From positions 3,636 to 67,635 of the forward strand of contig JAGVJK010000007.1 of the NCBI GenBank assembly GCA_020051155.1: a DNA stretch of 64,000 nucleotides, given 5' to 3'. Source of the DNA: Gammaproteobacteria bacterium. Its GTDB lineage: Bacteria > Pseudomonadota > Gammaproteobacteria > UBA1113. Positions 1,514 through 61,002 of the stretch are shown here, piece after piece (the stretch's first letter is position 1; every line of letters begins with the position of its first letter). Made by a program: the position numbers and the translations under genes. A model generated the notes under the pieces. That model ran no database searches and was not told where the DNA came from. It saw only the letters and a program-made list of their open reading frames with translations.

Positions 1514-2021
1514 TATAAATAGACTCCAAGGTTTGCTGCGCTGTCATGATTAATTCGCAAATTTCGCGCGCTGCACCGTGACCACCGGCTTGGCGAGTTT
1601 GCCAATCAGCATGACGTCGTACAAATTCCGGTGCATTGGCTACGGTGATACCTAACCCTGCTTTGCGAATTAACGGTAAATCCGGTAAGTCATCACCGAC
1701 ATAACAGACTTGTTCATCACTTAATTGTAAAGTTTTCGTTAAATCTAAATACGCCGGCATTTTTGCTTCTTGTCCTTGATACACATGTTCAATGCCTAAG
1801 GTTTGCATACGATGCGTGATCAAAGAAGATTTGTGACTGGTGATGATGCCGACGTTGATGCCGGATTTCATCAAGAGTTTGATCCCTAATCCATCATGAC
1901 AATGAAAGGCTTTATACTGCATTTGCTCGTCAGGAATATATAAACGGCCATCGGTTAAAACCCCATCCACATCAAAAATCACTAATTTAATTTTTTTAGC
2001 TTTTTCTAATAATCCTTGCAT
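1494..2021 (-). CDS. kdsC: 3-deoxy-D-manno-octulosonate 8-phosphate phosphatase KdsC (HAD family)
   Basis: ORF track 1494..2063. I prefer the internal ATG at 2021 (MQGLLEKAKKIKLVIFDVDGVLTDG), which puts the HAD DxDGV motif at the N-terminus and abuts the kdsD stop. Also carries the GDDLPD motif. Confidence 0.85.
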   Translation of the reverse strand: MQGLLEKAKKIKLVIFDVDGVLTDGRLYIPDEQMQYKAFHCHDGLGIKLLMKSGINVGIITSHKSSLITHRMQTLGIEHVYQGQEAKMPAYLDLTKTLQLSDEQVCYVGDDLPDLPLIRKAGLGITVANAPEFVRRHADWQTRQAGGHGAAREICELIMTAQQTLESIYSEYLDG

Positions 2022-2022
2022 G

Positions 2023-2994
2023 TTAAACCACTCCTGAGCGTAATAAATCGTGTAAATGAACAATGCCTAATAAACGTCGATTATTTTCTTCATCGACAAT
2101 CAGTAAGGCGGTAATTTTGTGAGTTTCCATAATTTTTAAAGCTTCCACCGCTAGGGTGTGAGGCGGCATGGTTTTACAAGAGGTGGTCATCACGTCGGAA
2201 ATTTGTGTTTGACGAGGATCTAAACCTTTATCCACGGTACGACGTAAATCACCATCGGTGTAAATGCCGCAGAGAAATCCCTGTTCATCCATCACGGCGG
2301 TTAAACCAAAACCTTTTTGTGTCATTTCCATTAAGGCTTCATTGACGCAACAATTGATGGAGACTTTCGGTAATTTTTCTCCAGTGTGCATGAGATGGCT
2401 GACACATAGTAATAAGCGTCGTCCTAAGGCGCCGCTGGGGTGCGAGAGCGCAAAATCTTCTTCGGTAAAGCCACGGGCATTTAATAAGGCGATGGCTAAG
2501 GCATCTCCCATGACTAGCATAACCGTCGTGCTGCTGGTGGGGGCTAAGCCGAGGGGACATGCTTCTTTTTCCACGCTGGCATCTAAATTCACATTGGCTG
2601 CTTGTGCTAAGGTAGATTGCGCATTGCCTGTTAAGCTGATGAGCGGGACGTTTAAGCGTTTAATTAAGGGTAACAGGGTTAAAATTTCCGAGGTTTCACC
2701 GGAATTGGAGAGGGCGATGACCACATCTTTGCGGGTAATCATTCCCGCATCGCCATGGCCCGCTTCACCAGGATGCACGTAAAAGGCAGGGCTACCGGTG
2801 CTGGCCAAGGTGGCAGCGATTTTATTGCCGATATGACCGGATTTACCCATCCCTAACACCACAATCCGACCTTCGCAGGCCAGCATATATTCACAGGCAC
2901 GCGCAAAATCTTCGTTAATACGGTCAGTGAGTGCTTGAATAGCATGAAGTTCTGTTGCGATTACCGCACGACCCAGTTGGCAAAAATCGGACAT
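2023..2994 (-). CDS. kdsD: arabinose-5-phosphate isomerase KdsD (SIS + tandem CBS)
   Basis: ORF track, 323 aa. SIS motifs GMGKSGHIG and SNSGET, followed by CBS-like C-terminal repeats. Lies upstream of kdsC. Confidence 0.9.
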   Translation of the reverse strand: MSDFCQLGRAVIATELHAIQALTDRINEDFARACEYMLACEGRIVVLGMGKSGHIGNKIAATLASTGSPAFYVHPGEAGHGDAGMITRKDVVIALSNSGETSEILTLLPLIKRLNVPLISLTGNAQSTLAQAANVNLDASVEKEACPLGLAPTSSTTVMLVMGDALAIALLNARGFTEEDFALSHPSGALGRRLLLCVSHLMHTGEKLPKVSINCCVNEALMEMTQKGFGLTAVMDEQGFLCGIYTDGDLRRTVDKGLDPRQTQISDVMTTSCKTMPPHTLAVEALKIMETHKITALLIVDEENNRRLLGIVHLHDLLRSGVV

Positions 2995-3161
2995 CAGGGG
3001 CTTTTATCCTTTTGTAATATTGGTAAATAAGGCCATAAAATTGAGTCATAGTTTACCGGAAATTATGTCTGATAACCATGGGGTGGGTTGAATTTGAGCA
3101 AATAAATCTTTTATATTGAAAATGAGAGGAAGTTAGAACATAAAGTTTTTGTTTTAACTGG

Positions 3162-3201
3162 CAAAGGCGTCCTATTTTTAGCTTTAGGACGCCTTTGTTT
3201 T
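3162..3201 (+). terminator. intrinsic-terminator-like hairpin whose T-tract is on the plus strand
   Basis: 12-bp perfect stem caaaggcgtcct (3162-3173) / aggacgcctttg (3186-3197), followed by ttttg. On the minus strand the hairpin is followed by ccagttaaaac, with no U-tract. Confidence 0.5.
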
Positions 3202-3208
3202 GCGGGGT

Positions 3209-4207
3209 TTAAGAAGAAGAGGATGAAGGTGAAGAAGATGATGATGGTGATGATGCTGGTGGTGGAGACAACGTGCGGTAGGGGCCAAGGAGCGATAAAC
3301 GTTCTGGTGTTATAGGATTTAGCTCTTTACATGTGTTTAAAAATTGTGATTGTGACGGATATATCTCAGGATTATCTCTTATGTGGTTTAATTTATTTTC
3401 ATTGATTTTAGTAGCTCCAGCCTGGAATAACATCTGAAAAATAGCTTGTTCATTGAAAAAAATAGCTAAATCTAGAAGACTAAATTCAGATAAATAGCTA
3501 AAGCAGATGGGAGAAGGAGATGTTGATTGTTCAATGCTATCGTTTTGAGGTGGAGTAGTCTTCTTTATTGGAGTTTCAATACCAAACTCTGTTTCTGTAT
3601 CTAAATTAACTTTTTTCTTCCCAGTGTATGCTAATAAATTTGCAACTAATTCGACCTTACCAAAGATAATTCCATATTCCAGCGGAGTTACCTTGCATGA
3701 AGGATTGCGTGCTACTTTTAGAAATCCATCGATGAATACTGGTTCCGCTTTTCTAAAAAAATGGTTTGAAAGCCCTTTTTCCGGGAAAAGCGCAAGATTG
3801 AGATGGCTATAGTTAAGAGAAAAAGACTTATTCCCGCGGTGCTCAATTAGCAAAAATGTAGTGTTTGCGGTAGGGTAGTGGTCTAACGCAATATCTAAGG
3901 GTTCTTGATTCTTGCTATTTTGTGCGTGGATATTAGCGCCAGCGAGGAGTAATTGTTTGACTAACTGGTATCTATGCGCATCATCAATGGTTTCAGTTAA
4001 AGCTTCATGTAAAGGGGTTTGGCCCCAGGCGTATTGATCAACGCATGCATCTGTGCGTTCCCCCCCGCAGGAGAACCAACCAAATTGTTGATGCACAAAA
4101 ATGCGATTTAAAAAAGGGTAACTTGCTCGAAAACCGTGCAATGCCATTTTAGCGTTAGCACGTGAAGTCTCGAGTGCTAAAATTTCTTGATCATCACTAG
4201 CTGCCAT
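3209..4207 (-). CDS. ankyrin-repeat protein with C-terminal Ser/Pro tail (candidate secreted effector)
   Basis: ORF track, 332 aa. Degenerate ANK repeats (TPLHEAL...LVKQLLLAGANIHAQN; VTPLEYGIIFGKVELVANLL; LLDLAIFFNEQAIFQMLFQAGA). C-terminus is SPPPASSPSSSSSPSSSSS. Visibly more AT-rich than its neighbours. Confidence 0.75.
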   Translation of the reverse strand: MAASDDQEILALETSRANAKMALHGFRASYPFLNRIFVHQQFGWFSCGGERTDACVDQYAWGQTPLHEALTETIDDAHRYQLVKQLLLAGANIHAQNSKNQEPLDIALDHYPTANTTFLLIEHRGNKSFSLNYSHLNLALFPEKGLSNHFFRKAEPVFIDGFLKVARNPSCKVTPLEYGIIFGKVELVANLLAYTGKKKVNLDTETEFGIETPIKKTTPPQNDSIEQSTSPSPICFSYLSEFSLLDLAIFFNEQAIFQMLFQAGATKINENKLNHIRDNPEIYPSQSQFLNTCKELNPITPERLSLLGPYRTLSPPPASSPSSSSSPSSSSS

Positions 4208-4622
4208 TCTTTATACCTCATTATCAGTCATTCAATTAATCCCAACAAAGATACAGAAAAAATCACACAGGTCAAGCATTTTTTGAGCACAGCTGTGCTA
4301 TTTCAGTCCTGATAATCAGCTCAAGCTCTTAAAAATGCCTTTTATTGGTCACTAAATAGATAAATTTTAAACGGAATCATAAATATGGCTTTTTTTTACC
4401 AAAATTGCGGTAGAATATGCCAGATTATAGGTGAATGATCCTGAGCATGGGCCTGAGAATGAAACAGCATCTTCTGAAACGATACCACTTAATTCTCAGG
4501 GCGACGAGGCAGGTTATGGAACGCTTCATCAAATGGAAGTTGATCTAGGAGGTGGATCTGCTGGCGTTGAACCTTATGAACGGATGTATCCACATCCACA
4601 AAATATGTAAATACAGCAATAT

Positions 4623-4653
4623 AGCGCCAAGAGATTTTCTTGGTGCTATTTTC
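4623..4653 (+). terminator. intrinsic-terminator-like hairpin
   Basis: Stem agcgccaaga (4623-4632) / tcttggtgct (4638-4647, one G-T pair), 5-nt loop, then attttc. Lies 13 nt after the stop of an unlisted 59-codon ORF (4431-4610). Confidence 0.4.
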
Positions 4654-4670
4654 AAGATCAGCGCGTGATA

Positions 4671-4980
4671 GATCTCAATGAAGGTGTCTGGCACATTGAT
4701 TTGGAAAAAAGAATCTAAATTTTCCACAATAATCAAAAAGAGAACCAGCGTAAAAGCATTCTCGTGTGCCTGACTCCGTCTGCATTGAGCGCTCGACGAA
4801 GAGCCTCCTAATCAACATCAATTCGAAATGTGCTCTATCAAAAAGAAACTGTTTTTTTGAGATCGGCATAAGCGGAGTCAGGCACACGAGAATGCTTTTA
4901 CGCTGGTTCTCTTTTTGATTTGTTAGGAGCAAGATGTGCCCGTTTTCCAAATCAATGTGCCAGACACCGCTGTTGAGATC
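4671..4980. mobile_element. MITE-like nested inverted-repeat element, family 1, copy 1 (310 bp, TA-flanked)
   Basis: Outer IR gatctcaatgaaggtgtctggcacattgatttggaaaa / ttttccaaatcaatgtgccagacacc...gagatc. Inner perfect ~48-bp IR aatcaaaaagagaaccagcgtaaaagcattctcgtgtgcctgactccg. TA dinucleotide on both flanks (4669-70, 4981-82). No ORF of its own. Confidence 0.8.
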
Positions 4981-5331: not shown

Positions 5332-5538
5332 TTTATTTGAATCCTCAATGAATAATTTAATTTTTTTGATTTAATAAGAAGCAGGTTAAACTGCACGCAA
5401 GATTGTACAATATTTCCGCATAATAAACCAGTTCAATTTGGCTTATTGGCGCTACCTCCAAAAATCTAAATTGGGCTAGTTTTTTAATTTCAGAGAGGCA
5501 GCCACTTGGATATCGCGACAAATAATCGATAAATCTGT

Positions 5539-5597
5539 CGCGATTTGACAGATCGCGACAAATAAGCTATTAATTTGTCGCGATCTGTCAAATCGCG
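5539..5597. promoter_or_regulatory. 25-bp perfect inverted repeat (9-bp spacer), putative operator upstream of the Fic gene
   Basis: cgcgatttgacagatcgcgacaaat (5539-5563) is the exact reverse complement of atttgtcgcgatctgtcaaatcgcg (5573-5597). Part of a TCGCGA array (5513, 5538, 5553, 5578, variant at 5593, 5628). Confidence 0.6.
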
Positions 5598-5624
5598 CCA
5601 CATTTTTGGCGCAAGGGGGAAATA

Positions 5625-6995
5625 ATGTCGCGAAAGGTTGCTTCAAAAGAAATAGAACAAATTTTAGCCTTTTTGCAGCAATATCCTGAAGGGGCTTCGG
5701 CTGAAGTTATTTTGCAGGGATTGCCAAATGAAATATCCAAGCGTACTTTGCAGCGGCGATTAGCTAAGCTTATTGTAGAGCAACAGGTAGTGAGAGTGGG
5801 TGAGGGGGCAGCGAGTCATTATCAACTTGCTACAACACCCGTGAAAATAACATCTGCACACGCCTATGATTACATTCCATTATCTAGTCCGGCAGAATCG
5901 TTACGAGAGGCCATCCACCAACCATTATCATTGCGGCGCCCAGTAAGTTATGACCGTGCATTGCTTGATGCTTATGAGCCTAATGTCACTTATTATTTGC
6001 CGGTCTCACTGCGCCAGCGGTTGATGAATTGGGGACAAATTTCAAAAGAACAGCAGCCTGCCGGTACTTATGCGAAGAAAATTTTAGAACGATTATCGAT
6101 TGATTTATCCTGGAATTCCTCACGCTTAGAAGGTAATACATATTCTTTATTAGAAACAGCGCGATTGCTTGAGCAAGGCGAGGCGAGTACAGGGAAACAA
6201 CAATTTGAAGCACAAATGATTTTGAATCATAAAGCAGCGATAGATTTTATGATTTCTTCGGCAGAAGATATTGACTTTAATCGTTACACTATTTTGAACT
6301 TACACGCCCTATTGTCTGATAACTTATTGCCAAATCCCGCAGCTTGTGGGCGATTGCGTCAAATTCCAGTAGGCATCGCTGGAACAGTCTATTATCCATT
6401 AGAGATTCCGCAAGCGATTGAGGAGTTTTTTCAACAAATTTTGGATAAAGCAAAAGCTATCATTGATCCCTTCGAGCAAGCGTTTTTTGTCATGTTACAT
6501 ATTCCTTACTTGCAGCCTTTTGAAGATGTTAATAAACGAGTCTCGCGTTTAGCTGCTAATTTACCGTTGTTTCGAAAAAATTTATGTCCACTTTCTTTTA
6601 TCGATGTGCCAGAGCAAGCCTATATTGATGCTACTTTAGCGGTTTATGAGTTTCATCGATATGATCTTTTACGTGATGTGTTTGAGTGGGCTTATCAGCG
6701 ATCGGCTCTGCATTATGCAGCGCTCCAACAATCCTTGGGAGAGCCTGATCCGTTTAAATGGCGCTATCGAAAACAAATCGCTTTGCTGATGAAACAAATT
6801 GTTAGTTTGCAATTAAATAAAGAACAGGCGATTCAGTTGATTCAACAAGCAGCAAATTTAGAGGTGCCAGTTACCGATCATCAAAAATTTATTGAAATGG
6901 TGGATCGAGAAATCATGAGTCTGCATGAGGGTAATATTGCACGTTATCAAATACGGCGTGAGGAATATGCTGCCTGGCGTGCGTTGTGGGATTAA
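5625..6995 (+). CDS. HTH + Fic/Doc-fold protein with degenerate active-site motif (QPFEDVNKRVSR)
   Basis: ORF track, 456 aa. aggggga SD. N-terminal wHTH-like segment (ISKRTLQRRLAKLIVEQQVVRV). Intact alpha-inh-type motif SSRLEG (res 165-170). Fic-core motif region LHIPYLQPFEDVNKRVSRLAAN, where the canonical HxFx(D/E)GNGRxxR His is Gln (cag, 6513-6515). Confidence 0.75.
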   Translation: MSRKVASKEIEQILAFLQQYPEGASAEVILQGLPNEISKRTLQRRLAKLIVEQQVVRVGEGAASHYQLATTPVKITSAHAYDYIPLSSPAESLREAIHQPLSLRRPVSYDRALLDAYEPNVTYYLPVSLRQRLMNWGQISKEQQPAGTYAKKILERLSIDLSWNSSRLEGNTYSLLETARLLEQGEASTGKQQFEAQMILNHKAAIDFMISSAEDIDFNRYTILNLHALLSDNLLPNPAACGRLRQIPVGIAGTVYYPLEIPQAIEEFFQQILDKAKAIIDPFEQAFFVMLHIPYLQPFEDVNKRVSRLAANLPLFRKNLCPLSFIDVPEQAYIDATLAVYEFHRYDLLRDVFEWAYQRSALHYAALQQSLGEPDPFKWRYRKQIALLMKQIVSLQLNKEQAIQLIQQAANLEVPVTDHQKFIEMVDREIMSLHEGNIARYQIRREEYAAWRALWD

Positions 6996-7032: not shown

Positions 7033-7073
7033 TGCTACTATCAATACTTAGCAAGTCGGCAGGGGGCAGCAGG

Positions 7074-7910
7074 GTGATACAGCAACGAGAGGGGTTGGGT
7101 GATTTAATTCGAATTGATCATTTAACGTTCCAACGAAACCAGCAATGTATATTTGATGATATTAGTTTGACCATTCCCAAGGGTCAGATTACAGCAATTA
7201 TGGGCCCCAGTGGTACCGGTAAAACAACGCTATTGCAGTTGATCGGTGGGCGGTTAAAGCCCAACGCCGGCCACCTTTATTATGAGAATCAATGTATTGA
7301 TGGTATGTCGAATAAGCAATTGCTTCGCCTGCGCGAAAAAATGGGCATGCTGTTTCAAAATAGTGCTCTGTTTACGAATTTAACGGTTTATGACAATGTT
7401 GCGTTCCCCATGCGCGAGCATACGCAATTGCCAGAATCTTTTATTAAAGATTTAGTCTTGATGAAATTAGAAGCAGTGGGTTTGCGAGGCGCCCGCAACT
7501 TAATGCCGAGTCAATTATCTGGCGGTATGTCGCGTCGAGTTGCCCTAGCACGCGCCATGGCCTTAGATCCTGAATTGATCATGTATGATGAACCCTTTAC
7601 CGGCCAAGACCCCATTTCTATGGGGGTGTTGGTGAAACTCATTAAGCATTTAAATGATGCATTGGGTATGACCAGTATCATTGTTTCTCACGATGTGCCA
7701 GAAACTGCTAGTATTGCTGATTACATTTATATTTTGGCGCAGGGAAAAATTGTGGGACAGGGAACGCCTCAACAGTTAGCAGATTGTCAAGATCCTCACG
7801 TTTTACAATTCATGCATGGATTACCCGATGGTGTGGTGCCCTTTCATTATCCAGCACCGGATTATCGACAGGATCTTTTAGCATCCTGTAAAGAGAGGGA
7901 AGCATCATGA
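7074..7910 (+). CDS. mlaF: phospholipid ABC transporter ATP-binding protein MlaF
   Basis: ORF track 7029..7910. GTG at 7074 is preceded by agggggcagcagg and gives an MlaF-sized product. Walker [10 protein letters not shown], signature [14 protein letters not shown], Walker B IMYDEP. First gene of the mlaFEDCB order. Confidence 0.85.
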
Positions 7911-47561: not shown

Positions 47562-49106
47562 ATGCCAACAACCAACATGTCATTCACCAGTCGTAAGACG
47601 TGGTTTGGGGATGCCTTCATTATTTTTGTGGTAGCCAGCATAGTCATGGCGTTGTTTTTGGGATCCCATGCCTTAATCACGCCTGATGAAGCGCGGTATA
47701 CTGAAGTTGCGCGAGAAATGCTGAGCTTCCACAATTACATCACACCCATGGTGAATGGTGTGGTTTTTTTAGATAAACCCATTCTCTTTTATTGGTTGCA
47801 AGCGTTGAGTATGAAATTGTTCGGTGTCAATGAATGGGCCATTCGCTTGTGGCCAGCATTATTTGGTGTGTTTGGCGTACTCGGTGTGTATCTAGCGGGA
47901 CGTAAACTTTATGATCGAACCACGGGTTGGTTATCCGCGTTGGTGCTATTAACGAGCCCTTTGTATTTCGGCGCTGCTCATTATGTCAATATGGATTTGG
48001 AAGTGGCAATTTGGGTGAGTGGGGCTTTGTTTTCTTACTTGATTGCCATGACAACAGCTTCTTATCGACGGCGTTGGTTGATCGTCGCTTATGTATTTGC
48101 AGGGTTAGCGATCTTAACGAAAGGTTTGTTAGGCTTAGCCTTTCCTATGATGATCATTGGTGCCTGGTTGTTGGTGCAAGGCCGCTGGCGTTTGTTACGT
48201 GACATGTCGATTCCCTTAGGCTTTTTGATCATTGCTCTCATAGTATTGCCATGGTTTATCTTGGTGCAGCGCGCAAATCCTGATTTCTTTCATTACTTTT
48301 TTGTGGTGCAACAATTCTCGAGATTTTTAACTCAGCAATTTAATAATGTGATGCCGGTTTGGTTTTATTTGCCAATTATTTTAGTCGGATTGTTGCCTTG
48401 GACGTTGTTTTTACCGCAGGCAGTGATGCAGCAGATTCGGAAAATAAAAGTCGCAGAGGAACGCGGAGTTAGTTTATTTTTATTGTTGTGGCCCTTGCTG
48501 ATTTTTATTTTCTTTTCTATTCCCTCTTCAAAAATTGTAGGTTATATCTTGCCAGTTATACCGCCTTTGGCCTTAGTGATTGGGCATTACCTCGCGCAGC
48601 AATGGCAGCGTGTCGATACCACCGAGTTTTTGACAACCCGGAAAAAAGTATTGAGTTTGGCAGGGCTATCTTTGGTATTATTGGTCAGTGCAACAGCTAT
48701 GATGCCGCGGGTTTCATTACCGTCGATTAAGCCCTTTTTGCCGACAATTACCGCGCAACGAACACCGCAAACAAAAATCGTGTCATACCAGCATTTTTAC
48801 CAAGATGCGCCTTTGTATTTACAGCAGAGAATTATTTTAGTCGCTAATTGGGATGATCCTGCATTACAAAAAGCCGATGATTGGCGACGAGAATTACTAC
48901 CAGGAGTGGAGCAAAATCCTGCTTCTCGTCAATGGATGTGGAATGAAACGCAATTCTGGCAACAATGGCATAGCACAACGCCGTTATTAGTGTTATTACC
49001 GAAAAGCCGTTTATCTGCATTTAAAGAGCGAGCGCAATCAGCCGTTGAAGTATTACAACAAAAGGATCGTATTGTATTGGTATCGAATGTTTTGGGTAAA
49101 AATTAA
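47562..49106 (+). CDS. ArnT-like GT-C glycosyltransferase (PMT_2 family), paralog 1
   Basis: ORF track 47511..49106. ATG at 47562 follows agga. Polytopic. Motifs ITPDEARYTEVAREM and FLDKPILFYW are typical of undecaprenyl-phosphate-sugar-dependent ArnT/PMT enzymes. Confidence 0.8.
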   Translation: MPTTNMSFTSRKTWFGDAFIIFVVASIVMALFLGSHALITPDEARYTEVAREMLSFHNYITPMVNGVVFLDKPILFYWLQALSMKLFGVNEWAIRLWPALFGVFGVLGVYLAGRKLYDRTTGWLSALVLLTSPLYFGAAHYVNMDLEVAIWVSGALFSYLIAMTTASYRRRWLIVAYVFAGLAILTKGLLGLAFPMMIIGAWLLVQGRWRLLRDMSIPLGFLIIALIVLPWFILVQRANPDFFHYFFVVQQFSRFLTQQFNNVMPVWFYLPIILVGLLPWTLFLPQAVMQQIRKIKVAEERGVSLFLLLWPLLIFIFFSIPSSKIVGYILPVIPPLALVIGHYLAQQWQRVDTTEFLTTRKKVLSLAGLSLVLLVSATAMMPRVSLPSIKPFLPTITAQRTPQTKIVSYQHFYQDAPLYLQQRIILVANWDDPALQKADDWRRELLPGVEQNPASRQWMWNETQFWQQWHSTTPLLVLLPKSRLSAFKERAQSAVEVLQQKDRIVLVSNVLGKN

Positions 49107-50065
49107 AATCCAATTTTCTTCGATATGATATAGAGCGGGCGCTGTTTTACTTCATTAAAAATACGACCAATGTATTCACCTAAGATCCCAATGGACAGTA
49201 ATTGAATGCCGCCTAAGAACATAATGGCGACAATCAACGTAGCGAAGCCTGGGGTTTTCGCACCAAAAAATAAAGTTTCACCAATGATGCAAAGTGCATA
49301 AATAAAAGAGATGAGAGAAATTGCAAAACCAATGACGCCCCAGAATCGCAATGGGATTTCAGAAAAAGAAGTAATCCCGGTAATGGCTAGCTCCACTAAC
49401 CGGATAAAACTCCAGGAGCTTTGCCCCGCGGCGCGCTCTTGTACATCAAAGGGAACCGCCATACTAGAGTATCCAACCCATGCATAAAGACCTTTCATAA
49501 AACGACTGCGTTCATCGATTTGATTCAGAGAGTCTACGACACAGCGATCGAGTAAACGAAAGTCACCGGCATTCGGTGGAATGCTAACATTGGTGATTCG
49601 TTCCATCAGCCGATAGAAAAAGCGAGCAAAGCTGCGTTTAATGCGAGATTCATCGCCGCGACTTTTGCGCACGCCATAAACCATGTCATAACCCTCAGCC
49701 CAATGTTTTAAAAATTGAGGAATCACCTCCATTGGATGTTGAAAATCACCATCAATTAACACAACTACTTCACCGCTCGCATGTTGCAAACCCGCAGATA
49801 ATGCAATTTCTTTGCCGAAATTACGAGAAAAACGTAATAGCTTTACGGGATAAGTGTCAGTGAAGGAGAGGACAGCTTGATAAGTTTGATCCTTGCTAGC
49901 ATCATCCACCACAATGATTTCATATTGCTGACTGAGCTGCTGCGCTTGTGCATTGAGTGCTTTAAGAAACGCAGCAATCACCGGCTCCTCATTATAAGCA
50001 GGGACAATGTAGGAAATAAAAACTTGCTTATTTTCTAATCGCTTTAATCGGCCAGTTAAGGGCAT
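49103..50065 (-). CDS. GT2 polyprenyl-phosphate glycosyltransferase (ArnC/GtrB/FlmF2-like)
   Basis: ORF track, 320 aa. IVPAYNEE, IIVVDDASKD, LIDGDFQHP. Two C-terminal TM helices. Confidence 0.8.
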   Translation of the reverse strand: MPLTGRLKRLENKQVFISYIVPAYNEEPVIAAFLKALNAQAQQLSQQYEIIVVDDASKDQTYQAVLSFTDTYPVKLLRFSRNFGKEIALSAGLQHASGEVVVLIDGDFQHPMEVIPQFLKHWAEGYDMVYGVRKSRGDESRIKRSFARFFYRLMERITNVSIPPNAGDFRLLDRCVVDSLNQIDERSRFMKGLYAWVGYSSMAVPFDVQERAAGQSSWSFIRLVELAITGITSFSEIPLRFWGVIGFAISLISFIYALCIIGETLFFGAKTPGFATLIVAIMFLGGIQLLSIGILGEYIGRIFNEVKQRPLYIISKKIGF

Positions 50066-50099
50066 TGTTCAATTCTCGCATCAGTGATGAATGAACTCA

Positions 50100-51413
50100 T
50101 CATAATGAGCGAAGGTTTCTGTCGTCAAGTAAAAATCGCCATAAAGGTATTACTTCGATACCTTCGACGGAGAAGGGTGCTTTGTCCACTGGCAGATCAC
50201 GGCTCACGATTAAGCAGCGTGCCTCGGGAAACCATCGTTTTGCTACGGCTAATCCTTTAATTTCTCGTTGTTGAACTCGAGGATCGTTAAGACCATCTGC
50301 GGTGACTTGAATTAAATAACGAGTTTGATTTTTTTCACGAACTAAAAAATCTACCTCGACTTCTTTGCGCCAGTAATAAATATCTAAAGAGGCATTTGCA
50401 AGTAGTTTCAAATACACCAATGACTCCATAGCATGCCCCAGATCTTCAGAAGCGCTAATCGCTGTAATAGCTCTGAGCCCTGGATCAATGGCATGAATTT
50501 TTTGTGGGTTGCGCACACGCTCTGCACTTTTTAAACTGAAATGCGATAAGAGAGCGATCAAGAAACTTTCTTCCAAGTAGCCACAAATATTGCCTGCTAA
50601 TTCAGTGGAGATCCCAAAAATAGTGCCAATACGAGTTGCCGATAATAAAGAAGCAGAGTGCGTTAATAAATGAACGGCAATTTGTCTTAGCTGGACTAAA
50701 TCACGAATCGTATGCCGCAAAGCGACATCTCGATACAAAATATCTTCAAAGTACTGAGTTAAGATCTGTTCGCGCTTTTCATCGGAGCTAGCCATGACAA
50801 CAGCTGGGAAACCACCCCAACGCAAATAATTTAACAGTTCGTACTCGATAGCAGCTGGGGCTGTACTTAATGTTAAATCTTTTGGTAGCTCAATCTGCTT
50901 GAATCTTAATTGTTCCTCAAAGCTTAGCGGATAGACGTAGAATCTTAAGTGGCGCCCGGTGAGCAATGTTCCTAGCTCTCGTGACATTAGCTTGCCAGAG
51001 GAGCCAGTGATAAAAATTTTAATTTCCTCTGTTTCATTACGGGCTCGAACCCACTGCTCCCAATCTGGAATATTTTGGATTTCGTCAAAAAATAAATAAG
51101 CTAAACCCGTGGGAAAAATCTCAGTTCGATATGTTTTGTAAAGCTCATCCAGAGTGGCGATTGTTAAATAGGGTGCAAGGGAGGGTTCCTCAAAGTTGAT
51201 GTGCAGTATGGCACGAGGATCTACAGAATGAGTTTCAAGATGATCAATCACTTGGTATAAAAGCGTGGTTTTGCCGGCGCGCCGTGGACCAATTAGTGTG
51301 ATGATTTCTGGGCCTTCTAAGCAAGATAAAAGGGGTTTTAACAATGTTCGCTCGAAGCCTGCTGAAAGTTTAGCGTGGCCCCAACGATTCCAGCGTTCAA
51401 GAATTTCTAACAT
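50100..51413 (-). CDS. AAA+ ATPase of the COG1373 type (AAA_14 + DUF4143)
   Basis: ORF track, 437 aa. Walker A GPRRAGKTT, Walker B LFFDEIQ. C-terminal YYWRKEVEVDFLV segment resembles a PD-(D/E)xK-like motif. 34 nt upstream of, and co-oriented with, the GT2 gene. Confidence 0.8.
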   Translation of the reverse strand: MLEILERWNRWGHAKLSAGFERTLLKPLLSCLEGPEIITLIGPRRAGKTTLLYQVIDHLETHSVDPRAILHINFEEPSLAPYLTIATLDELYKTYRTEIFPTGLAYLFFDEIQNIPDWEQWVRARNETEEIKIFITGSSGKLMSRELGTLLTGRHLRFYVYPLSFEEQLRFKQIELPKDLTLSTAPAAIEYELLNYLRWGGFPAVVMASSDEKREQILTQYFEDILYRDVALRHTIRDLVQLRQIAVHLLTHSASLLSATRIGTIFGISTELAGNICGYLEESFLIALLSHFSLKSAERVRNPQKIHAIDPGLRAITAISASEDLGHAMESLVYLKLLANASLDIYYWRKEVEVDFLVREKNQTRYLIQVTADGLNDPRVQQREIKGLAVAKRWFPEARCLIVSRDLPVDKAPFSVEGIEVIPLWRFLLDDRNLRSL

Positions 51414-51423
51414 GAGATAACCT

Positions 51424-51555
51424 ATTTGTCAGGTGAAACTGATGAAACTATAGCATATTCATCAGGTGTAGTCGATGAATAATAGGTATATTCATAAGGT
51501 GTAGTCGATGAATATGCATGATATTTATCAGGTGCACCTGATGAATAGTCAAAAA
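51424..51555. repeat. four tandem 33-bp repeats, each carrying a 24-bp imperfect palindrome
   Basis: Units start at 51424, 51457, 51490 and 51523: atttgtcaggtgaaactgatgaaa / attcatcaggtgtagtcgatgaat / attcataaggtgtagtcgatgaat / atttatcaggtgcacctgatgaat. Exact 33-bp phasing. The first unit is 11 nt from the ATPase ATG. Confidence 0.85.
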
Positions 51556-51663
51556 ATCAATTTTTGATAGATTTTTTTCCAGATAAATCAGTGAGATTTG
51601 CTAGTTTAAGCTGTTAACGCCTTATGGTAAGCTGGCAGCATTTTTCTGGGAGAGTGCGGTTTC

Positions 51664-53385
51664 ATGCAACAAGGATTTGGAAAACAGGGATTTTTAGACC
51701 TAACAGCATTATTCATCGGCATTTTCATCTTTTATTTTTTGTTTTTGGGTGCACATCCCTTGTTAACACCTGATGAGGCCGGGTATACGGAAGTAAGCCG
51801 CGGGATGTTGGTGAACCACAGTTTTTGGATTCCACTGCTAAATGGCATTCCGTTTTTTGATAAGCCCCCTTTATTTTACTGGTTGCAAATGAGTGCCATG
51901 TCCGTTTTCGGTGTTTCAGAGTGGGCAGCACGTTGTCCCACGGCATTCTTGGGGACGGTGACTTGCTTGTGGCTGTATGGCGTGGGCCGAGTTTTGTTTG
52001 ACCGGTTAACCGGACTTTTATCAGCAATTGTTCTGGCCACCTCATTGTTTTATTTTCTCATGTCTCATTATGCTAATTTAGATTTATCCGTTGCGGCGTT
52101 TATTACGGCTAGTTTGTCTTGCTTTATTATTGCGATGCAATTTCCAAAGGGTAGAAAAGCAACAACACTGTTGTTATTGGCTTACTTTTTTTCAGGATTA
52201 GCGGTGCTTACCAAGGGATTAATAGGCATCGTTTTTCCTGCAATGATTGTGGGTGTTTGGCTCTTATTAACCCATCAATGGTTTTTGTGGCGTCGCTTGC
52301 ATTTAGGGTGGGGCCTATTGATTGTATTGTTGATCAATGGGCCTTGGTTATTCTTAGTGCAAAAACGGCATCCAGAGTTTTGGCATTATTATTTTTATAT
52401 CCAGCAATACAGCCGTTTTCTCGGTCATCAATTTAATAGCAAGCAGCCGATTTGGTTTTATGGTCCAGTGATTTTAGGGGGGATGTTGCCTTGGACATTG
52501 TTTTTGGGGCAAGCCATGATTCAACGCGTGAGGAGGATGGGGCTGCGCTTTAAAGAGCATGGGAATGATTTATTTTTGTTACTGTGGCCGTTATTAATCT
52601 TGATCTTTTTTTCCATTCCCGCGTCTAAAACTCTGGGTTATATTTTGCCAGCACTTCCACCGTTAGCAGTGTTAGTGGCTTGTTATCTGCGACAACATTG
52701 GTTTGATCCAGCACCATCCTCTTGGCTATTTACCTTTGTAGGAGTGCTTAGTTGTTTATTGGCAGTTGCTTTACTAGTATTTATTCAATCATTGAATCCT
52801 AAGATTCACATAACAGCCTATATCCTCTGCAGTGTTTTTATATTTCTAGGGGTTGCTCTTTGTTGGCGCTGGCGTTTAGCTTTTCGTCATGGGTGCATGT
52901 TACTGATAGCGGGTTTTGTTTTAATCATGAGCCTGTTCATGATGGATATTCGCTGGTTGCCTATTTCCAGTGCTGTACCCCTATTGCCTACATTGAAAGC
53001 TTATGAAGCCGTAGGGGTAACGGTGGTGGATTATAATCGCTATGATCGAGATTTACCTTTTTACTTAGGACATCCCACCGTTATTGTAGGAGAGTGGGAT
53101 CGAGCGGAATTGCTTGAAAGAGATAGCTGGCAGGGGGTTTTTGCTTATGCGAATCAGTATCAACGCTACCCACGACTTTGGATTTTTACGCAATTTTTTC
53201 GAGAGTTTAATAGCCAGCGGCCCCTGATCGTGGTTCTCAACAAGCGGTTTTTACCCGTTTTTCAGACCCAGAACCTGGCGCATGGACAGATTGTCCAGAT
53301 TTTTAAGGAAAAGGTTCTTCTCGTGAATCCAGCTGCTTACTTAAAATTTCGCCAGAATCTTGCGCTGCCGCCCATTTCACCGTAA
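51664..53385 (+). CDS. ArnT-like GT-C glycosyltransferase (PMT_2 family), paralog 2
   Basis: ORF track, 573 aa. LTPDEAGYTEVSRGM, FFDKPPLFYW. Clearly paralogous to 47562..49106 along its whole length (e.g. LFLLLWPLLI.IFFSIP.SK..GYILP). Confidence 0.8.
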   Translation: MQQGFGKQGFLDLTALFIGIFIFYFLFLGAHPLLTPDEAGYTEVSRGMLVNHSFWIPLLNGIPFFDKPPLFYWLQMSAMSVFGVSEWAARCPTAFLGTVTCLWLYGVGRVLFDRLTGLLSAIVLATSLFYFLMSHYANLDLSVAAFITASLSCFIIAMQFPKGRKATTLLLLAYFFSGLAVLTKGLIGIVFPAMIVGVWLLLTHQWFLWRRLHLGWGLLIVLLINGPWLFLVQKRHPEFWHYYFYIQQYSRFLGHQFNSKQPIWFYGPVILGGMLPWTLFLGQAMIQRVRRMGLRFKEHGNDLFLLLWPLLILIFFSIPASKTLGYILPALPPLAVLVACYLRQHWFDPAPSSWLFTFVGVLSCLLAVALLVFIQSLNPKIHITAYILCSVFIFLGVALCWRWRLAFRHGCMLLIAGFVLIMSLFMMDIRWLPISSAVPLLPTLKAYEAVGVTVVDYNRYDRDLPFYLGHPTVIVGEWDRAELLERDSWQGVFAYANQYQRYPRLWIFTQFFREFNSQRPLIVVLNKRFLPVFQTQNLAHGQIVQIFKEKVLLVNPAAYLKFRQNLALPPISP

Positions 53386-59985: not shown

Positions 59986-61002
59986 ATGACAAGTACCAAA
60001 AAATCTTTGTCGCTTGCGATTCTCTTGCATATCGCAATCCTCAGTTTTTTAGTGATCGAATTAAATTTCTCTGCTACCGATGAATCAAAACCCCCATCCA
60101 TATCCATTAAACAAGATGAAACGCCCATCGTACATGCAACGGCCATCAGTCAACAACAAATTGAAAAGCAAGTTACTGCCTTGCAAGAACAAGAGCAACA
60201 ACGAAAGCTGGAGCAGCAACAACAGTTAGAACAAATGCAACAAGCTGCGGAAGCGGCACGACAAGAGCAGGTGCTAGCACAGCAGCAAATGGCAGCATTA
60301 AAACAACAGCAAGCAGAGGCCGCCCAGCAGCAACAACAATTAGCAGAAATGAAAGCGAAACAAGAGCAGGAGCAAAAAAAATTACTGGCTCAACAGGAAC
60401 AACAAAAGAAACAAAAAGAGTTAGAGGACCAACAAAAGGCTCAAGCCTTAGCGCAAAAGAAACAAAAGGAATTAGAAGATCAGCAAAAGGCTCAAGCCTT
60501 GGCGCAAAAGAAACAAAAAGAATTAGAAGATCAACAGAAGGCTCAGGCTTTAGCGCAAAAGAAACAACAATTAGCTGAACAGCAAAAAGCTGCGGCAGCA
60601 GAAGCTGAGCAAAAAAAGAAAATGCAAGCAGAGGCTGAGCGATTATTGCAGCAACAGTTAGCCAGTGATCAGCAGCAGTTAAATGCGGCAAAACAGCAAA
60701 TGCTCAATAAAGAATTAGCGCGCTACGCGAGTTTGATTAAAAACGCTATCGGTAATAATTGGAATGTCCCACAAAATGTAGCGGCCAATTTATCCTGTGT
60801 GTTATTAATTCGTATCTCTGATAATGGCCATGTCTTAGCGGTGCAGCTGGTAAAAACTAGTGGTGATCCAGTCTTAGATCGCTCTGCGGAAGCCGCTATT
60901 TATAAAGCATCACCCTTACCAGTTCCAGATAACCCAGAAATCATGCAAATGGTCCGCGAAATTCGTCTGACATTAACGCCGAAACTAAACTCTGTAGGCT
61001 GA
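59986..61002 (+). CDS. tolA: Tol-Pal system protein TolA (Q/E/K/A-rich domain II with internal tandem repeats)
   Basis: ORF track, 338 aa. N-terminal TM anchor, long QQ/EQ/KK helical region, C-terminal TolA domain III-like segment (GNNWNVP...C.L.I....G.V..V....SGD...D.SA..AI.KASPLP.P). Confidence 0.85.
   Translation: MTSTKKSLSLAILLHIAILSFLVIELNFSATDESKPPSISIKQDETPIVHATAISQQQIEKQVTALQEQEQQRKLEQQQQLEQMQQAAEAARQEQVLAQQQMAALKQQQAEAAQQQQQLAEMKAKQEQEQKKLLAQQEQQKKQKELEDQQKAQALAQKKQKELEDQQKAQALAQKKQKELEDQQKAQALAQKKQQLAEQQKAAAAEAEQKKKMQAEAERLLQQQLASDQQQLNAAKQQMLNKELARYASLIKNAIGNNWNVPQNVAANLSCVLLIRISDNGHVLAVQLVKTSGDPVLDRSAEAAIYKASPLPVPDNPEIMQMVREIRLTLTPKLNSVG
60406..60558 (+). repeat. 3 x 51-bp in-frame tandem repeat inside tolA (KKQKELEDQQKAQALAQ x3)
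   Basis: Units at 60406-60456, 60457-60507 and 60508-60558 encode identical 17-aa peptides with several synonymous differences between units. Confidence 0.9.

Follow-up and report, generated by a model that had tools for sequence, protein, structure and literature searches.

Phased palindromic repeats upstream of a PDC-S01-type ATPase gene: a probable operator array within an accessory insertion

A 64,000-nucleotide stretch of a gammaproteobacterial genome (GenBank assembly GCA_020051155.1, contig JAGVJK010000007.1; the whole stretch is referred to below as the window) contains an array of four palindromic repeats immediately upstream of a gene for an ATPase. The array, whose coordinates refer to the plus strand, lies between the ATPase start codon, which ends at 51413, 10 nt before the first repeat, and a divergent ArnT-like open reading frame (ORF) that starts at 51664. 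Both the closeness of the array to the ATPase gene and the width of the gap (250 bp) are much as a preliminary description, made from the sequence alone, had given them. Downstream of the ATPase gene, after 34 nt, follows a gene for a GT2 family glycosyltransferase (49103–50065). The divergent neighbour encodes an ArnT/PMT-like GT-C protein; a second ArnT-like gene, a YdjC gene, aspS, yebC and ruvC are found around the locus. This report examines the repeats, the ATPase and its homologues, and argues that the array is probably the control region of the ATPase gene, together with which it arrived.

A repeat search places the four units at 51424, 51457, 51490 and 51523, with spacings of 33, 33 and 33 bp; the exact period claimed earlier is therefore borne out. 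Each unit consists of a 24-bp core and a 9-bp spacer (Table 1). The palindrome noted in unit 4 is confirmed and is perfect over the 16 bp of its core ATCAGGTGCACCTGAT. Units 2 and 3 are complementary in their outer 7 bp only (ATTCATC...GATGAAT), around a 10-nt centre. These two units had been described as differing at one base, which is true of the 24-bp core, whereas their 9-bp spacers differ at six of nine positions. Tandem Repeats Finder (TRF) lists just 2.4 copies (51455–51534, period 33), since the sequences of units 1 and 4 deviate more.

The motif is confined to this locus. The pattern ATTCATCAGGTG-N4-YGATGAAT, with up to three mismatches allowed, matches only the four array sites in the 64 kb, against a chance expectation of 0.01, and none of 100 shuffles attains the observed count. 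The looser patterns ATTCATC-N10-GATGAAT and half-site CACCTGATGAAT likewise have no match outside the array within the window, which upholds the earlier statement, made by eye, that the motif occurs nowhere else in it. A motif with a single locus in 64 kb is what is expected of a private operator, and not of a regulon. In 185,579 species-representative genomes (the source genome is not among them), a scan for the exact array motif gave 22 single matches, scattered over unrelated phyla and none of them beside an ATPase homologue; this is about chance level (a rough estimate at uniform base composition is ~9). These searches also bear on the idea, kept in view in the preliminary description, that the array is a dispersed repeat of the REP (repetitive extragenic palindrome) or MITE (miniature inverted-repeat transposable element) kind that lies here by chance. 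The units are indeed palindromic and intergenic. Such an origin is nevertheless hardly credible, given the lack of any further copy in the 64 kb or in 13 kb of a related locus (L120, see below), the near-chance number of genomic matches, and the location of the array in a promoter position and not at gene 3′ ends.

The relation of the array to a promoter is apparent from a consensus scan, which finds a promoter-like element, P1, in the orientation of the ATPase gene. Its −35 hexamer falls within unit 2 and its −10 hexamer in the spacer separating units 2 and 1, so that the hexamers overlap these two units; the unit 1 core follows the −10 box directly, where transcription is expected to begin. 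The P1 −10 box coincides with a GC(C)TATAnT sequence that is conserved in homologues, and, judged from this position, transcription would start inside unit 1. A second element, P2, overlaps units 3 and 2 in the same manner. It is a duplicate of P1, one period upstream, and a weak match, and may be a by-product of duplication.

This geometry has consequences for the proposal that the array acts as RNA, namely as a 5′ leader of the ATPase mRNA folded into four consecutive hairpins. The minus-strand RNA of the array does fold far better than shuffled sequences (−41.1 kcal/mol; z = −6.8), but a z-score of this kind is obtained with any array of palindromes. Prediction gives a single nested fold, with long-range pairing between different units, instead of four hairpins, and units 2 and 3 could pair over their outer arms only. 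Rfam recognises only two tRNAs in the window, and nothing at 51400–51600. With a conserved −10 box between units 2 and 1, unit 1 at most would be part of a leader. Promoter geometry, the nested fold and the lack of an Rfam match thus favour a protein-binding function at the DNA level; the four-hairpin leader is unlikely, and a role as structured RNA is very improbable.

Table 1. Coordinates of the ATPase gene, the repeat units and associated elements in the window.
Feature	Position	Strand	Description
ATPase gene	50100..51413	(-)	437 aa, intact; AAA_14, winged-helix-like region, DUF4143 (PD-(D/E)XK-type)
Unit 1 (core + spacer)	from 51424		ATTTGTCAGGTGAAACTGATGAAA + CTATAGCAT
Unit 1 core, putative proximal operator	51424..51447	(-)	minus-strand reading TTTCATCAGTTTCACCTGACAAAT
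Promoter-like P1	51447..51475	(-)	-35 TCGACT (51475-51470), 17-nt spacer with TG, -10 TATAGT (51452-51447); consensus scan
Unit 2 (core + spacer)	from 51457		ATTCATCAGGTGTAGTCGATGAAT + AATAGGTAT
Unit 2 core	51457..51480	(.)	ATTCATCAGGTGTAGTCGATGAAT; 7-bp outer arms ATTCATC/GATGAAT; covers P1 -35
Promoter-like P2	51479..51508	(-)	-35 TCGACT within unit 3, -10 TATTAT; consensus scan, 9/12
Unit 3 (core + spacer)	from 51490		ATTCATAAGGTGTAGTCGATGAAT + ATGCATGAT
Unit 3 core	51490..51513	(.)	near copy of unit 2 (23/24)
Unit 4 (core + spacer)	from 51523		ATTTATCAGGTGCACCTGATGAAT + AGTCAAAAA
Unit 4 core	51523..51546	(.)	best palindrome, ATTTATCAGGTG/CACCTGATGAAT, 11/12 pairs over 24 bp
AT-rich block adjoining the array	51548..51600	(.)	contains dyad TCAAAAA-N5-TTTTTGA

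The protein encoded next to the array matches the Pfam families AAA_14 (E = 1.8e-33, residues 36–168) and DUF4143 (E = 5.8e-20, residues 228–371), as well as the PADLOC PDC-S01 profile PDLC04787 (E = 8.2e-105, residues 18–431). It retains all columns that are invariant in a 30-sequence alignment, including the Walker A (GPRRAGKT) and Walker B (DE) motifs. DUF4143 (COG1373) is classed, as a family of unknown function, in the PD-(D/E)XK nuclease superfamily (PMC3424549). PDC-S01 denotes a single-gene defence candidate in which an ATPase is fused to a PD-(D/E)XK domain; it is placed fourth in frequency among prokaryotic defences in a paper which notes that most PDC candidates await validation and gives none for PDC-S01 (PMC12988326). 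By all sequence criteria, the ATPase belongs to the PDC-S01/COG1373 candidate defence family. Its closest relative comes from a Coxiella-like metagenome-assembled genome, and its G+C content (42.6%, versus 43.0% for the window) gives no sign of recent transfer.

In an AlphaFold2 model of the ATPase (predicted local distance difference test, pLDDT, 84.5; predicted template-modelling score, pTM, 0.83), three parts can be distinguished: an AAA+ module, a set of three helices with a β-hairpin, predicted to be a winged-helix-like fold (residues 239–309), and an α/β, nuclease-like domain (residues 325–423). The top fold matches in the Protein Data Bank (PDB) are archaeal Orc1/Cdc6 proteins on origin DNA (2v1u, 2qby); further matches are the STAND proteins Apaf-1, CED-4 and Avs, MalT (8bob), and DnaA. 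The template-modelling scores of these matches are low (0.3–0.4), so that they back the domain architecture and not orthology. A PDB sequence search with the ATPase gave a P-loop match to RecA only, and no detectable similarity of the Orc1 or DnaA type. Homologues have weak HTH_11 matches over the same internal region, and some carry an extra winged helix–turn–helix (HTH) domain fused at the C-terminus. The predicted wing contains four basic residues (K295, R299, R301 and K305) that do not vary in the 30-sequence alignment.

The seven closest homologues, with 52–66% protein identity, are located in mutually unrelated neighbourhoods, housekeeping ones among them: after riboflavin genes (locus L001), beside pheS/rplT/infC/thrS (L004), after an ABC-F ATPase gene (L006 and L109), after a gene for a leucine-rich repeat protein (L110), near ligA (L111), and directly after a Rep3-family gene (L112, region 1972–4290). 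In six of the seven, a related dyad, which in L001 is a degenerate remnant, comes right after a GC(C)TATAnT −10 box and 10–40 nt before the start codon. On the ATPase sense strand, the window reads ...ATTCATCGACTACACCTGATGAAT-AT-GCTATAGT-TTCATCAGTTTCACCTGACAAAT-N10-ATG. The counterparts are GCCTATACT-TTCATCAGATATAACTGATAAAT in L006 (24-bp dyad TTTCATCAGATATAACTGATAAAT), GCCTATAAT-TTCATCAGATATAACTGATGAAT in L109 (24-bp dyad TTTCATCAGATATAACTGATGAAT, plus a half-site upstream), GCCTATACT-TATGACAGATTAATCTGATGAAT in L004, and ATTTGATTGTTATAACGATCAAAT-ATA-GCTATAAT-TTGATCGTTATAACAGTCGAAT in L112, where two dyads ATTTGATyGTTATAAC... stand exactly 33 bp apart and flank GCTATAAT. The window −10 context GCTATAGT aligns with GCTATAAT, GCCTATACT or GCCTATAAT in L112, L006, L004, L109 and L001; unit 1 has the position of, and is related in sequence to, the proximal palindrome of L006, L109, L004 and L112. 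L111 carries the dyad ATTTGATTGGTATACCGTTCAAAT, and L110 has three dyads TTCGAyGGTTATAACC..CGAA at −160, −127 and −95 (spacings of 33 and 32 bp), all of them upstream of a weaker −10-like box, GCTATCCT. The sequence of the dyad varies by sub-lineage, whereas its length, its position and the ATT/AAT at its outer ends do not. Unit 1 with the −10 box is accordingly the ancestral, family-typical layout; a further site, placed 33 bp farther upstream across the −35 region, is likewise typical of the family, and the window has four.

Neither in the window nor at the seven close homologues does a regulator gene accompany the ATPase. In more distant homologues, the strict pattern TCATCAG...CTGATGA matched one of 85, a near failure that is due to the operator sequence being lineage-specific. 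Two homologues on plasmids have neighbours of their own kind: one is situated between cas3 and cas4 on Arcobacter cloacae pACLO (L116, 492–1751), the other beside a site-specific integrase gene on Sulfuricurvum pSULKU02 (L115, 417–1700). Such cas3/cas4, integrase and Rep3 neighbours agree with a mobile gene of the defence-island type.

The 33-bp period was taken from the window as a hypothesis and then tested on 84 loci (30–66% identity), comprising 76 metagenomic loci (30–46% identity), the closer homologues and the window itself. At each locus, 14-mer direct repeats with spacings of 12–60 bp were sought within 150 nt upstream, and the best one was taken. Its spacing is 32–34 bp in 32 of the 84 loci (38%), compared with 9.4% for coding or far-upstream control segments (binomial p = 1.6e-12) and 5.9% for promoters of other genes in those loci. 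By sequence, the upstream regions sort into 68 unrelated clusters; a few repeated lineages are therefore not what produces the result. Within the 20–45-bp range, 33 of the 84 loci beat their own dinucleotide shuffles (p ≤ 0.05), 20 of these 33 with a spacing of 32–34 bp. The first repeat copy is mostly found 50–65 nt ahead of the start codon, and the repeat sequences upstream of the family genes are lineage-specific. Five extra plasmid-borne homologues gave spacings of 33 bp (Arcobacter), 34 bp (Lactobacillus) and 32 bp (the archaeon Methanomethylovorans), with two of the five having no clear repeat. A second class, recognised post hoc, has a spacing of 23 bp (11 of 84 loci, including L074, L075, L093, L087 and L097, versus 0.7 of 80 control promoters); 23 and 33 bp are one helical turn apart. 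At the sequence level, a phasing of ~33 bp upstream of the ATPase genes is thereby established as a family-wide property in bacteria and archaea. The preliminary description had considered that the motif might always accompany this ATPase; related palindromes and 32–34-bp phasing do occur upstream of homologous genes in unrelated contexts.

How the array came to its present location can be read from relatives with the same synteny, which were found by a GT2 search. In L120 (GT2 71% identical), the gene order is ruvABC-yebC-aspS-ArnT-like, followed by GT2-ArnT-like-YdjC. GT2 here lies directly beside the divergent ArnT-like gene, and neither the ATPase nor the motif is present in 13 kb. L114 (GT2 75%) also has no ATPase, and its GT2 gene stands in another arrangement. 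A close relative, L113 (GT2 96% identical, ~86% nucleotide identity overall), has a gap of 440 bp (4402–4841) between the ArnT-like gene and GT2. Of the ATPase ORF, roughly the final 70 nt (the homologous block reaches window position 50170) and an internal piece of 99 bp survive in this gap, followed by units 2–4. Similarity to the window picks up again at 51449–51452, and L113 has neither unit 1 nor the −10 box. The empty site in L120 and the loss of the ORF in L113 mark the ATPase and its array as an accessory insertion. On this comparison of sequences, the ATPase with its array entered the ancestor of the window strain and L113, and L113 later lost most of the ORF; such patchy presence and loss is as expected of an accessory gene.

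The units that are left in L113 also record changes within the array. The unit 2 core is identical at 24 of 24 positions, and unit 4 at 22 of 24, with two asymmetric positions swapped, either by two substitutions or by inversion of the palindrome. The L113 unit at the position of unit 3 is a unit-4-like, full dyad. Since unit 3 of the window is nearly a copy of its own unit 2, yet matches this L113 counterpart at 14 of 24 positions, it points to a recent conversion or duplication in the window lineage. The AT-rich block adjoining the array (51548–51600) is identical at 52 of 53 positions between the window and L113, against ~86% elsewhere, and may be the promoter region of the ArnT-like gene or the edge of the inserted cassette.

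Just past the ATPase stop codon (50080–50103), the minus-strand sequence is TGATGAGTTCATTCATCACTGATG, in which ATTCATCA and CTGATG form a compact pair of half-sites that lacks the 8-bp centre. As a candidate cassette end, this pair was rejected; it is kept in L113, is missing downstream of the homologues, and is probably due to chance. In L114, a RelE/HTH_3 pair (7063–7757) is inserted after GT2. Accessory genes thus seem, on the evidence of these loci, to gather in the GT2/ArnT neighbourhood.

The same relatives speak against a further role that the preliminary description had assigned to the array, namely that it controls the genes for lipid-linked glycosyl transfer by gating an ATPase–GT2 transcript, the divergent ArnT-like gene, or both. 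The distances would permit this: the array lies 118 bp upstream of the ArnT-like ORF, and the 34 nt between the ATPase stop and the GT2 start contain no terminator-like site discernible by eye (the terminator scan covered only 51300–51800). Units 2–4 have, moreover, been kept beside these genes in L113. However, L120, where GT2 and the ArnT-like gene are adjacent, and L114, where GT2 is rearranged, have neither ATPase nor motif, and the motif architecture recurs with the ATPase family in settings unrelated to this one. In L113, the P1 −10 box is destroyed, yet the GT2 ORF is intact (320 aa). Control of glycosyl transfer is therefore quite improbable, and an ancestral GT2/GT-C control region is incompatible both with the adjacent genes of L120 and with the loss of most of the ATPase ORF in L113. 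Read-through from the ATPase gene into GT2 is possible as a by-product of the insertion.

The repeats, then, are real; they are tied to the ATPase family across unrelated contexts, and the locus is an insertion that has decayed in a close relative. The array is probably the cis-regulatory region of the ATPase gene, consisting of its own promoter and phased palindromic operators which arrived with a PDC-S01-type gene. Gene and operators would have been inserted between the GT2 and ArnT-like genes, and the usual two (or three) operators would have become four as the 33-bp module was duplicated in tandem or copied by gene conversion. ATPase dimers would bind each 24-bp dyad through the winged-helix-like domain. 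A distance of 33 bp corresponds to about three helical turns and would place the sites on one face of the DNA, allowing cooperative binding of neighbouring dimers. Binding would repress the gene's own promoter, and a potentially harmful nuclease-ATPase would be kept at a low level. The absence of an accompanying regulator gene and the locus-private sites make self-binding by the ATPase the most economical reading, and repression is the likeliest direction, since the −35 region and the predicted transcription start both fall within sites. It is from such features that we infer the binder, the sign of its effect and the position of the start. The characterisation of the array as ‘iteron/operator-like’ stands in its second part, with sites phased on the same face, whereas an adjacent Rep gene and direct repeats, which would define iterons, are lacking.

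A link between protein and operator is also suggested by the predicted recognition helix. It starts with GISTELA in proteins with TCATCAG-type dyads, with GVSL(E/H)LA where the dyads are of the TTTGATyG type, and with QVSSDLA where they are of the TTCGAyGG type; the way in which these residues track the operator type is suggestive.

Several points weigh against an autoregulatory operator array. The link between helix residues and operator type is confounded by phylogeny, with operator similarity found only within protein clades, and the winged-helix assignment is a prediction together with weak profile matches. The literature searched holds no functional study of DUF4143, COG1373 or PDC-S01, and no binding, transcription-start or expression data for their members. 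About 60% of the family members have no clear 32–34-bp repeat by what is a crude measure, and the geometry is not uniform: in L057 and L110, both repeats lie upstream of the −10 box, which makes activation a possible alternative direction. Finally, L113 keeps units 2–4 without an intact ATPase, as a relic of a recent deletion or for another user.

Two of these points, the predicted nature of DNA binding by the ATPase and the units retained in L113, are also what would be said in favour of a different binder. The dyads could be operators of a separate, unlinked host transcription factor, with the ATPase gene as one target. The type of dyad shifts with the ATPase lineage, though, while architecture and 33-bp phasing persist across phyla and into an archaeon; a host factor would need to be replaced in each host while the geometry stayed the same. 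No regulator gene travels with the ATPase, and the motif has a single locus in 64 kb. Regulation by an unlinked factor is therefore unlikely.

A second alternative retains the ATPase as the binder and changes the purpose of binding: the sites would be an assembly or parking platform, either for an origin- or iteron-like complex or for a nuclease kept inactive until infection, with autoregulation as a side effect. The fold resembles that of AAA+ proteins of the initiator and STAND types, which form oligomers on repeated sites, arrays of three to four sites occur, an AT-rich and highly conserved block adjoins the array, and homologues are common on plasmids (214 records), one of them beside a Rep3 gene. 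On the other side, in chromosomal housekeeping contexts the gene stands alone, and there is nothing there to replicate; no Rep gene stands beside the array, where the ORFs are those of the ATPase, GT2 and the ArnT-like protein, and no DnaA box is visible in 51400–51700. The sites of the close clade flank a conserved −10 box, which is classic operator geometry. A platform function is on balance rather improbable. In its most developed form, which is equally doubtful, PDC-S01 proteins would be sequence-specific DNA-binding AAA+ nucleases, and the array would hold an inactive oligomer until infection, when its release or remodelling would induce the gene and free the nuclease. Each lineage would then have private, co-evolving phased sites, 33 bp apart or, in the second class, 23 bp. 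If true, this would amount to a built-in sensor switch for a single-gene defence system.

On the preferred reading of an autoregulatory array, the repeats are uninformative on the control of lipid-linked glycosylation, and mark an accessory cassette that is already decaying in a sister strain. COG1373/PDC-S01 is among the most abundant uncharacterised ATPase-nuclease families, and its cis-architecture makes cheap and concrete tests possible. The upstream repeats, which flank the −10 box in the close clade, can serve as a bioinformatic marker for the true start and the promoter of the family genes.

Elsewhere in the window, two further repeats were seen. At 5512–5632, the sequence TGTCGCGA(T)/ATCGCGACA occurs five or six times, in one orientation or the other (TRF: 40-bp period, 2.2 copies), directly upstream of a 456-aa Fic-domain ORF (5625–6995, plus strand), which looks like a second accessory-type gene with a repeat array of its own. 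At 60403–60567, TRF finds a 51-bp tandem repeat (3.2 copies, 89% match, consensus CAAAAGAAACAAAAAGAATTAGAAGATCAACAAAAGGCTCAAGCCTTAGCG) that is likely to be a coding repeat.

Taken as a type, an autoregulatory operator array is nothing unusual. What is apparently new is 32–34-bp phasing with lineage-specific sequences across an abundant, uncharacterised family of defence candidates. The C proteins of restriction–modification systems are small, separate HTH proteins that bind as cooperative dimers to paired palindromic C-boxes and are autoregulated. Like C-boxes, the present sites are palindromes over the predicted promoter of a mobile, potentially toxic nuclease-like candidate defence gene, and their specificity varies by lineage; unlike in C-box systems, the presumed binder is the large AAA+/nuclease-like protein itself, and there are up to four sites, 33 bp apart from centre to centre. 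In function, the locus resembles autoregulated toxin–antitoxin loci, mobile genes for harmful proteins with paired palindromic operators. With Orc1/Cdc6 and its origin recognition box (ORB) elements, and with DnaA and the boxes in the dnaA promoter, the ATPase shares an AAA+ module followed by a (here predicted) HTH or winged-helix module, and repeated sites directly upstream of its own gene beside an AT-rich stretch. It differs from them as a solitary accessory insertion, dispensable in a close relative, with an extra PD-(D/E)XK-like domain, 24-bp dyads of lineage-dependent sequence and no detectable sequence similarity. MalT and related STAND regulators likewise combine an NTPase with a DNA-binding domain (predicted here) and multiple phased sites, MalT being an ATP-dependent oligomer; MalT, however, activates a regulon through asymmetric direct-repeat boxes, whereas the array would be a single, private target made of dyads, where repression is likelier. 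Plasmid iterons, lastly, are also exactly phased tandem repeats beside an AT-rich stretch, and the ATPase family is common on plasmids; but iterons are direct repeats, usually of 17–22 bp, bound by a Rep protein encoded alongside, whereas the units described here are palindromes that overlap a predicted promoter in a chromosomal housekeeping context with no adjacent Rep gene.

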